Shown here: positions 52,141 through 53,168 of the stretch, in pieces
Layout: each line of letters opens with the position of its first letter
How positions within the stretch are numbered: the stretch's first letter is position 1
Virus record (IMG/VR): IMGVR_UViG_3300037067_015585
Location: 96,001 to 160,000 of that record
DNA: 64,000 nt
Source of the DNA: a virus
Taxonomy: Duplodnaviria; Caudoviricetes
Direction: 5' to 3' (one strand)
Notes under the pieces: model-generated
The model's database searches: none
Told to the model about the DNA's origin: nothing
Seen by the model: the letters and a program-made list of their open reading frames with translations, nothing else
Program-made: the position numbers and the translations under genes

Positions 52141-52692
52141 TTATAGCGGCTTCTTAATCACCCAAGAAGGCCAATCAACAGGAATATCATTTGTTAATAT
52201 GAGTGGTAGATTATTTTCTTTAATGAATCTATTAACATCAGGTTCTACATTCGACCACGTTTTGTATGTGTAGTCGTGTCCACATAAATATCCACCAGCT
52301 TTAATTTTGGGCCACCACGCGATAATATCGTCGTATGCTTTTGTGTGGTCTGCGTCTATATAAACAACATCTAGTACATCGTCGTCAAACCTTGCTGCCG
52401 CGACCACAGATGATTCTCTTACAACTAATACATTGTTAAATGGTGTAAATTTTTCTAACGTATACAAATAGTTGGCTAAATGATCTGATTTAGCTGCACC
52501 ATCATTTTCTTGCCATGTTGTTCCGGGATGCTCACACCATGAGTCTATCAAATAGAGCCTATATGGTTTATTTTCTAGTAGTATGATCTCCGAAAAGCCT
52601 CCGCGAAATACGCCAACCTCCACAAATATTCCGTTATGTGGCAATGTTCTTACAAGACTAGTTCGATTTGTCAGATCAAGTTCTGTTTTCAT
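52141..52692 (-). CDS. class I SAM methyltransferase (Methyltransf_24-like)
   Basis: VEVGVFRG, LIDSW, YIDADH, GGYLCGHDY. Confidence 0.85.
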   Translation of the reverse strand: MKTELDLTNRTSLVRTLPHNGIFVEVGVFRGGFSEIILLENKPYRLYLIDSWCEHPGTTWQENDGAAKSDHLANYLYTLEKFTPFNNVLVVRESSVVAAARFDDDVLDVVYIDADHTKAYDDIIAWWPKIKAGGYLCGHDYTYKTWSNVEPDVNRFIKENNLPLILTNDIPVDWPSWVIKKPL

Positions 52693-52710
52693 GATGTTAT
52701 ATTTACCAAT

Positions 52711-52747
52711 AAAAATGCCCCAGTGGAATTTTCCGATCCACCGGGGC
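52711..52747 (-). terminator. intrinsic terminator closing the protein+ncRNA unit
   Basis: Minus strand GCCCCGGTGGA...TCCACTGGGGC followed by ATTTTT. Confidence 0.75.
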
Positions 52748-52778
52748 GATTGTAATGGGGTCGTTAAAACCCAATTGT

Positions 52779-52950
52779 GTACCGAATTACACGAACCAAC
52801 TTTTCCGTTTAACTCCAGTTTTTAGTTTAAGTCCCATGTGTAATGCGATTATACAACGACCGCTTAATTTTTCTGCCCGAGAGCGGTCGGCCTGAATTGC
52901 ACAGGCATCCATGGTTGTTTTTTCTGGAGACTCGATTTGGTCCTCGGTAC
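52779..52950 (-). ncRNA. permuted tRNA-like (YrlA/Y-RNA-like) module 2
   Basis: Nested stems GTACCGAG/TTCGGTAC, GACCAA/TTGGTT, CTCCAG/CTGGAG, CCATG/CATGG enclosing T-arm GCCTG-TGCAATT-CAGGC, closed acceptor CGACCGCT/AGCGGTCG, D-arm GTA-TAATCGCAT-TAC. Confidence 0.65.
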
Positions 52951-52955
52951 GATGC

Positions 52956-53120
52956 TGAAATTGTAGCGGCAATCTAAATCTTTTCGAGTGAAACTGCCTC
53001 TGCCGTTGGGCTACCCCCGCGTGTTTTCTTTAAAAGTGCGGGGATCAGGAGTCGAACCTAAACTGTCATTTCAACTCTGGTCTAAACATGAGTTTGAGAT
53101 TGAAACTACGCTACAATTCA
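52956..53120 (-). ncRNA. permuted tRNA-like (YrlA/Y-RNA-like) module 1
   Basis: Outer stem TGAATTGTAGCG/CGCTACAATTTCA leading to T-arm TTAGG-TTCGACT-CCTGA, acceptor TCCCCGC/GCGGGGG closed by a loop, then TA-GCC-CAACGGCAGA-GGC D-arm. Confidence 0.75.
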
Positions 53121-53168
53121 CTCTGGCGGCTAGTTAATCTATAACCTTATAAACCGCCCGAATGATTC

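Follow-up and report, generated by a model that had tools for sequence, protein, structure and literature searches.

Linked elbow positions 18 and 55 in a permuted tRNA-like module of a DUF7873-associated phage RNA

The window analysed here is a stretch of 64,000 nt from a tailed-phage record of IMG/VR, and all features of the RNA described below, as well as the DUF7873 gene preceding it, are found on its minus strand. The gene encoding the DUF7873 protein (PF25283; 53169-53906, 245 aa, Pfam E 5.8e-95) and a SAM-methyltransferase gene (52141-52692) are separated by a gap of 476 nt in which no long ORF was found. This gap is occupied by a complete non-coding RNA of approximately 450 nt (52709-53160), located directly downstream of the DUF7873 gene. 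Its folding was far stronger than that of shuffled sequence (z = -4.65), and a covarying consensus fold was obtained from six phage homologues. From 5′ to 3′ the RNA comprises a 5′ hairpin (GGGCGG...CCGCC, 53125-53160), two modules referred to as module 1 and module 2, a small hairpin, and a strong intrinsic terminator (GCCCCGGUGGA...UCCACUGGGGC with a U run behind it, 52709-52747) that is kept in all six phage homologues.

In the RNAalifold consensus module 1 extends from 52957 to 53119, within which the covariance model described below matches 52989-53074 at 39 bits. Its outer stem is formed by GAAUUGUAGCG (53109-53119) and CGCUACAAUUUC (52957-52968), and encloses a T arm (53045-53061, T-loop UUCGACU), a capped acceptor hairpin (53014-53044) and a D arm (52996-53011) whose D-loop, AACGGCAG, carries G18 and G19. 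A first reading made from the letters alone, here called the sequence-only reading, had described this module as canonical, with a GG D-loop and a UUCGA T-loop, and rightly so. Module 2, together with its long basal stem, covers 52779-52950. One side of this stem is GUACCGAGGACCAA (52937-52950), which has UUGGUUC (52793-52799) and UCGGUAC (52779-52785) as its pairing partners, and the stem encloses two conserved segments, AAAUCGAG (52931-52938) and UUAAACGGA (52804-52812). The long outer stems of both modules are recovered by RNAalifold from the six phage homologues, and several pairs of the module 2 structure are altered on both sides.

Both modules are circularly permuted with respect to tRNA, following the order T arm, acceptor 3′ strand, cap loop, acceptor 5′ strand, two linker bases and D arm, so that module 2 lacks the linear cloverleaf order of a canonical tRNA. 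The open stem of both modules stands at the position of the anticodon arm. Scanning of the window with ARAGORN (0 genes) and with Rfam at gathering thresholds returned nothing. An escape of module 2 from tRNA scanners had been anticipated from its unusual elbow. Both modules are indeed missed, but the cause is their permutation and not the elbow: once un-permuted, their halves having been rejoined in silico around an artificial anticodon loop, both were called as tRNA by ARAGORN, including the one with C18/G55.

The tRNA-like core of module 2 is located at 52834-52914 (covariance model 66.7 bits, E 2.4e-15). It is closed by a stem in which CCAUG (52910-52914) pairs with CAUGG (52834-52838), followed by the variable region GAU with U48 at 52907, and by the T arm GCCUG-UGCAAUU-CAGGC (52890-52906), which has a 5-bp stem. 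The T-loop UGCAAUU (52895-52901) reads U54 (52901), G55 (52900), C56 (52899), A57 (52898), A58 (52897), U59 and U60. The acceptor-like hairpin CGACCGC...GCGGUCG (52857-52889) has a cap loop of 19 nt and is connected through the linker bases U8 (52856) and U9 (52855) to the D arm GUAU-AAUCGCA-UUAC (52840-52854). Its D-loop AAUCGCA (52844-52850) consists of A14 (52850), A15 (52849), U16 (52848), C18 (52847), G19 (52846), C20 (52845) and A21 (52844). From the alignment alone RNAalifold recovered the T, acceptor and D arms of module 2, with compensatory changes in 15 of the 16 pairs. Within the phage clade the cap loops of this hairpin and of its equivalents in L001-L006 are long (19-23 nt) and keep their sequence (UCUYG(CG)GGCAGA...). 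Among the bacterial members, many have N-CCA at the start of the cap loop in both modules, resembling a relic of a tRNA 3′ end.

The sequence-only reading had placed C18 and G19 in this D-loop and G55 and C56 in the T-loop UGCAAUU, and had listed U8, A14, A15, U48, U54, A58 and the G19:C56 pair as kept; the minus-strand sequence confirmed both statements. Judged by sequence, four of the five canonical tertiary pairs of tRNA would thus be retained in module 2, with 15:48 covarying among homologues, and 18:55 would be replaced by a C:G combination. In the 7-nt T-loop, bases one to five were numbered 54-58. In the D-loop, the 3′-terminal N20-A21 served as anchor, with 18 and 19 directly in front of it; where a D-loop exceeded 7 nt, position 18 was fixed by its distance from the 3′ end. 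Homologues with 7-nt D-loops have AAAGGCA or AAUGGCA. With this numbering, which is the natural one, the invariant G falls on G19 of the GG loops, and the variable base preceding it becomes 18. A numbering as C17 G18 C19 was rejected on account of this alignment and of the pairing of the same G with the invariant C56. An antiparallel kissing interaction consisting of G19:C56 and C20:G55 was rejected as well, since position 20 is freely C, U or A among the sequences with G55.

Homologues of the RNA were gathered by searching with the neighbouring DUF7873 protein. This protein has relatives in phages and in more than 500 bacterial contigs, and in most cases the same RNA lies downstream. Thirteen IMG/VR phage loci were collected in this way, together with 80 bacterial genome loci (of more than 570 matches) and 80 metagenome loci (of more than 500 matches). 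The bacterial carriers include Streptomyces, Nocardia, Kitasatospora, Dactylosporangium, Ktedonobacterales, Polyangiales, Deinococcales and Armatimonadota. With a covariance model trained on 73 module 2 sequences, one or two modules were detected 3′ of the DUF7873 gene in most loci. Among 174 loci, two modules were found in 112 and one in 38, many of the others being incomplete contigs or lying beyond the cap set on the alignment. The RNA of the window shows all features by which DUF7873-associated RNAs can be recognized, namely a location directly 3′ of the gene, two permuted modules approximately 150 nt apart, and a terminator. A blastn search of the phage collection with this RNA gave no match among named phages, and in the literature no paper was found that ties tRNA-like or Y RNAs to Streptomyces or to DUF7873.

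Several loci depart from this arrangement. A Ktedonobacterales contig (L048:3619-4422) harbors two full two-module RNAs in tandem, and therefore four modules; the first copy has A18/G55 in both heads, and the second has G18/U55 and C18/U55. In three Herpetosiphon loci (L022, L023 and L024) the gene after DUF7873 encodes an ADP-ribosylglycohydrolase, and the 2 kb searched contain no tRNA-like module; L057 has its two modules downstream of DUF7873 but on the opposite strand.

The DUF7873-associated RNA is absent from Rfam, and its nearest relative is YrlA (Y RNA-like A, RF02553), a tRNA mimic that Ro60/Rsr binds in bacteria and phages (Chen et al. 2014, PMC4201824; Wang et al. 2018, 10.1101/312249). 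YrlA shows the same permutation on an open stem, and both RNAs have a tRNA-type elbow, the U8:A14 pair and the Levitt pair. In the crystal structure of YrlA (PDB 6cu1) the permuted design makes use of the tRNA elbow, with G74 intercalated, G75 paired with C40 and the Levitt pair present (10.1101/312249). The two RNAs are distinct in other respects. The RNA of the window consists of two modules in approximately 450 nt and follows DUF7873 rather than Ro60, and its module 2 has G55 and C18 in place of U55 and G18. With the YrlA model no match to the window RNA was found at E <= 10, and the bacterial homologues of module 2 scored 29.6-40.8 bits, below the gathering threshold of 69 bits. A TROVE gene was absent from three of the five carrier genomes checked (Streptomyces, Nocardia and Ktedonobacterales).

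The 234-kb phage record to which the window belongs does encode a Ro60 (TROVE) protein. Its ORF (G000:231.5-232.3 kb) is not adjacent to the DUF7873-linked RNA (at approximately 148.8 kb), from which it is about 83 kb away. Just upstream of this Ro60 gene two YrlA-like permuted mimics are located on the minus strand (L183 and L184; G000:232773-232843 and G000:232980-233049), which match Rfam YrlA at a sub-threshold 31-33 bits. Both have the T-loop UCCGAGU, and thus C55, together with a canonical G18 G19 D-loop; at the equivalent RNAs related phages have UUCGA. A fifth covariance-model match in the record (L186, G000:202348-202419) was discarded as an artefact at the junction of two tandem tRNA-Met genes, in a region that also comprises a tRNA-Thr gene. 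In another IMG/VR phage (L016:1-2950) the Ro60 and DUF7873 systems adjoin, as a TROVE/Ro60-vWA gene, a YrlA-like RNA, the DUF7873 gene and a single permuted module follow one another in this order, ahead of a cluster of seven tRNA genes.

For the DUF7873 protein, PADLOC, NCBIfam, a sequence search of the PDB and a literature search gave no indication of a function. Its AlphaFold model (pLDDT 89) consists of long helices and a β-sheet. Fold matches to this model were unconvincing (best Foldseek E 7e-3 with TM 0.09), and VIA-align scored highest against a designed helical protein (Z 8.3), no better than the background level of helical bundles. A putative partnership between the protein and the RNA, and a putative function of the RNA, are suggested by gene order.

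The contacts that would hold the two arms of module 2 together are strongly conserved. G19:C56 is present in all 73 seed sequences, and U8:A14 in all 73 of the seed and in 139 of the 143 sequences of a larger set. The Levitt pair is A15:U48 in 131 sequences and G15:C48 in 12, with no mismatches, and the parser did not select on this pair. A rare double change to A19:U56 (T-loop UUUGA with U56, D-loop with G18 A19) was observed in two cases, L290:2212-2308 and L201 (G006:181841-181911), the latter being a YrlA-like RNA from a related phage.

Positions 18 and 55 vary, and they do so together. In approximately 200 pooled module 2 homologues we counted G18/U55 about 134 times, C18/U55 in 35 cases, A18/G55 in 18 and C18/G55 in 10, and neither G18/G55 nor A18/U55 was encountered. 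The 141 loci placed on the tree of the DUF7873 protein comprise 90 G/U, 27 C/U, 15 A/G and 9 C/G sequences, with U/U, G/G and A/U all at zero; the tenth C18/G55 sequence, L102, could not be placed and was left off the tree. A replicate of 57 further loci gave 43 G/U, 8 C/U, 3 A/G, 0 C/G, 2 U/U, and again 0 G/G and 0 A/U. Hence G18 occurs only with U55 and A18 only with G55, and C18 occurs with either. Module 1 independently obeys the same rule, in that all five of its G55 cases have A18, compared to about 103 sequences with G18/U55. The canonical G18/U55 combination accounts for approximately 90% of module 1 and 65% of module 2 sequences. C18 is accompanied by A57 in 37 of 37 sequences, and G18 by A57 or G57 about equally.

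Fisher tests on the pooled counts gave p = 1.9e-16 for G18 against position 55 and p = 7.7e-19 for A18 against position 55, both ignoring kinship. For this reason, a control was added in which an independent binary trait was simulated on the DUF7873 tree, retaining simulations with 15-35 positive tips. In none of 4,955 simulations did the trait avoid all G18 tips, and in none of 4,955 did it capture all A18 tips. By parsimony, position 55 must have changed at least 14 times, and 24-25 changes are needed for position 18. A sign test on well-supported branches had only five independent contrasts and is underpowered; it was not significant by itself (p >= 0.125). The tree is a FastTree phylogeny of one 245-aa protein that is probably moving horizontally. 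Many transitions from G/U to A/G are found on it, with a G/G or A/U intermediate seen in none, and these transitions are true double switches.

Covariation of 18 and 55 across homologues, which the sequence-only reading had put forward as one way to check its proposal, was thus found as a strong linkage. Its view that the fold is under selection rather than decaying is supported by the interdependence of 18 and 55 in both modules over approximately 200 homologues and by the retention of 19:56, 8:14 and 15:48. Comparison of the sequences shows that the L-shaped fold, with its tRNA-like corner, is under selection, because 18 and 55 are linked, 19:56 and 8:14 are near-invariant and 15:48 covaries cleanly. 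Linkage of 18 and 55 is, by itself, no proof of Watson-Crick pairing between them.

Two groups of T-loops are relevant for the interpretation of these combinations: (i) the canonical tRNA elbow, defined by G18-psi55, G19-C56, T54-A58 and a purine at 57; and (ii) the more general T-loop motif, which also occurs in RNase P and in T-box stem I. Module 2 shares with the former G19:C56, U54:A58, A57, U8:A14, A15:U48 and tRNA-like arm lengths. It differs from canonical tRNA by C18, G55 and a capped acceptor stem, and has neither an anticodon loop nor a free CCA end. Outside tRNA, T-loops of the type UGNRA, the best being (UGHAA)UU, have been described in FMN and cobalamin riboswitches by a large phylogenetic and mutational study, in which the intercalator between positions 4 and 5 is almost always an A that forms a hydrogen bond with the sugar edge of G2 (10.1101/2022.12.26.521914). 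The sole active non-A intercalator in that riboswitch screen was a C, combined with a tRNA-like UUAAA loop (10.1101/2022.12.26.521914). The UGCAA plus UU of module 2, closed by the 5-bp stem GCCUG/CAGGC, fits (UGHAA)UU exactly. Relatives with A18/G55 reproduce the classic combination of G2 and an intercalating A; in the window the predicted intercalator is C18, as opposed to the A18 of 18 relatives with G55. The receptor of module 2 would also differ from that of riboswitch T-loops, being a tRNA-type D-loop that makes the G19:C56 contact as well. By analogy, then, G18/U55 would represent the tRNA solution and A18/G55 the general T-loop solution, and C18/U55 would mirror the exception of the riboswitch screen. 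C18/G55 is the least explained combination and falls outside the known T-loop rule, because no C intercalator with UGNRA loops was recovered in that screen; it could have a geometry of its own, possibly the C:G pair of the sequence-only reading. A further group of T-loops starts with C54 (CUCNU.. or CGCAU..), often without A58 (L036, L124, L128, L139, L219, L238, L240, L241, L250 and L277, several of them cyanobacterial). These may match the CGNRA-type T-loops described for riboswitches, or may adopt another loop geometry.

On the DUF7873 tree the window groups with L001-L004, all of which have C18/G55. The sister of this clade, phage L005, has C18/U55 and a D-loop one base longer. The C18/G55 state arose at least three times, in the clade of the window, in L152, and in L131/L137/L142, whose sister L130 has A18/G55. 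C18/U55 is fixed throughout the whole Nocardia and Dactylosporangium clades, and therefore C18 is not a damaged state awaiting compensation; as it is common and stable with U55, C18 does not need G55. Most likely, the C18/G55 of the window originated through a change from U55 to G55 on an established, permissive C18 background, an order of events (C18 first, G55 second) to which one sister taxon points.

The preferred explanation, which we consider probable, is that module 2 switches between alternative combinations of T-loop and intercalator, with C18 as a permissive state, inside a genuine tRNA-shaped domain. The sequences, the secondary structure and the statistics on 18/55, 15/48 and 19/56 are direct results of the analysis, and we infer the three-dimensional contacts, the order of the changes and the expression of the RNA. 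Module 2 would be a domain with T arm, D arm, Levitt pair and elbow within a two-headed, YrlA-like mimic RNA. In the phage lineage its T-loop would have left the tRNA type (UUCRA, in which G18 intercalates and touches U55) for the general type of riboswitches and RNase P (UGNAA-UU). The change in the elbow would then be one among several interchangeable structural solutions kept by selection on the L-shape, rather than a mutation compensated through Watson-Crick complementarity.

The compensatory swap to C:G, as proposed by the sequence-only reading, is supported in part: the two positions are linked, but a change of both partners towards complementarity is not supported. A true Watson-Crick pair C18:G55 replacing G18-psi55, the result of a classical double change and giving a distinct elbow, would be in line with the complementarity of the two bases, with the recurrence of C18/G55 in at least three lineages and with the reciprocal G18/C55 in the Ro60-adjacent YrlA-like RNAs of the same phage. 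Moreover, a special geometry may be needed, given that UGNRA loops did not accept C as intercalator in the riboswitch screen. Nevertheless we regard such a pair as unlikely, as 35 sequences, that of the sister phage among them, stably combine C18 with U55, and G55 is combined with A18, which is not a Watson-Crick case, more often than with C18 (18 versus 10). In the tRNA elbow, the 18:55 and 19:56 contacts are parallel in register with purine 57 intercalated between them, and in T-loops the Watson-Crick face of nucleotide 55 is normally engaged in the U-turn contact. A plain cis Watson-Crick C18:G55 pair would be improbable on both grounds. Chance coincidence in a relaxed or decaying module 2 elbow finds some footing in its greater variability (approximately 35% non-canonical combinations compared to 10% in module 1). 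It is extremely improbable in view of the retained G19:C56, U8:A14 and U54:A58 contacts and the covariation of the Levitt pair without mismatches, and it is contradicted by the counts, which lack G/G and A/U among approximately 200 sequences and which none of the 4,955 simulations matched.

The loss of U55 could also be driven by recognition, in that it would change how the RNA is read by TruB, other tRNA enzymes, a nuclease or its own partner, and the two heads might serve different clients. An escape from TruB, likewise expected by the sequence-only reading, would be trivially true as chemistry, since G55 cannot be pseudouridylated. U55 is missing from three of the four permuted modules of this phage, related phages having U55 in their YrlA-like RNAs, and Chen et al. 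(2014) detected psi55 in YrlA RNA in vivo (PMC4201824). The sequence-only reading had likewise proposed two functionally distinct elbows, and the elbow of module 1 is in fact much more constrained than that of module 2. On the other hand, close relatives differ in the elbow of module 2: DUF7873 proteins that are nearly the same accompany C/U in L030 and A/G in L028, or A/G in L130 and C/G in L131, which argues for interchangeable structures and not for different clients. As the two C55 RNAs are paralogues, and probably the outcome of one event, the absence of U55 from three of four modules may be a coincidence, and a recognition-driven origin appears very unlikely to us. A related and distinctly unlikely idea is that C18/G55 constitutes a third type of contact between T-loop and D-loop, either a C:G pair or a C intercalator on UGNAA, that might alter which proteins read the RNA, U55 having been removed from three of the four mimic modules in order to escape or redirect a host T-loop enzyme.

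T-loops belong to the most widely reused building blocks of RNA, and those of the UUCRA/G18 type and those of the UGNAA type with an intercalating A have so far been handled as separate classes. Under the switching of T-loop and intercalator that we favour, the family of DUF7873-associated RNAs would be a case in which both classes interconvert repeatedly at one homologous natural site, with C18 apparently acting as a bridge. The family provides strong comparative evidence for tRNA-like folding of the heads of these RNAs, and offers naturally occurring variants from which the sequence rules of the tRNA elbow can be read.
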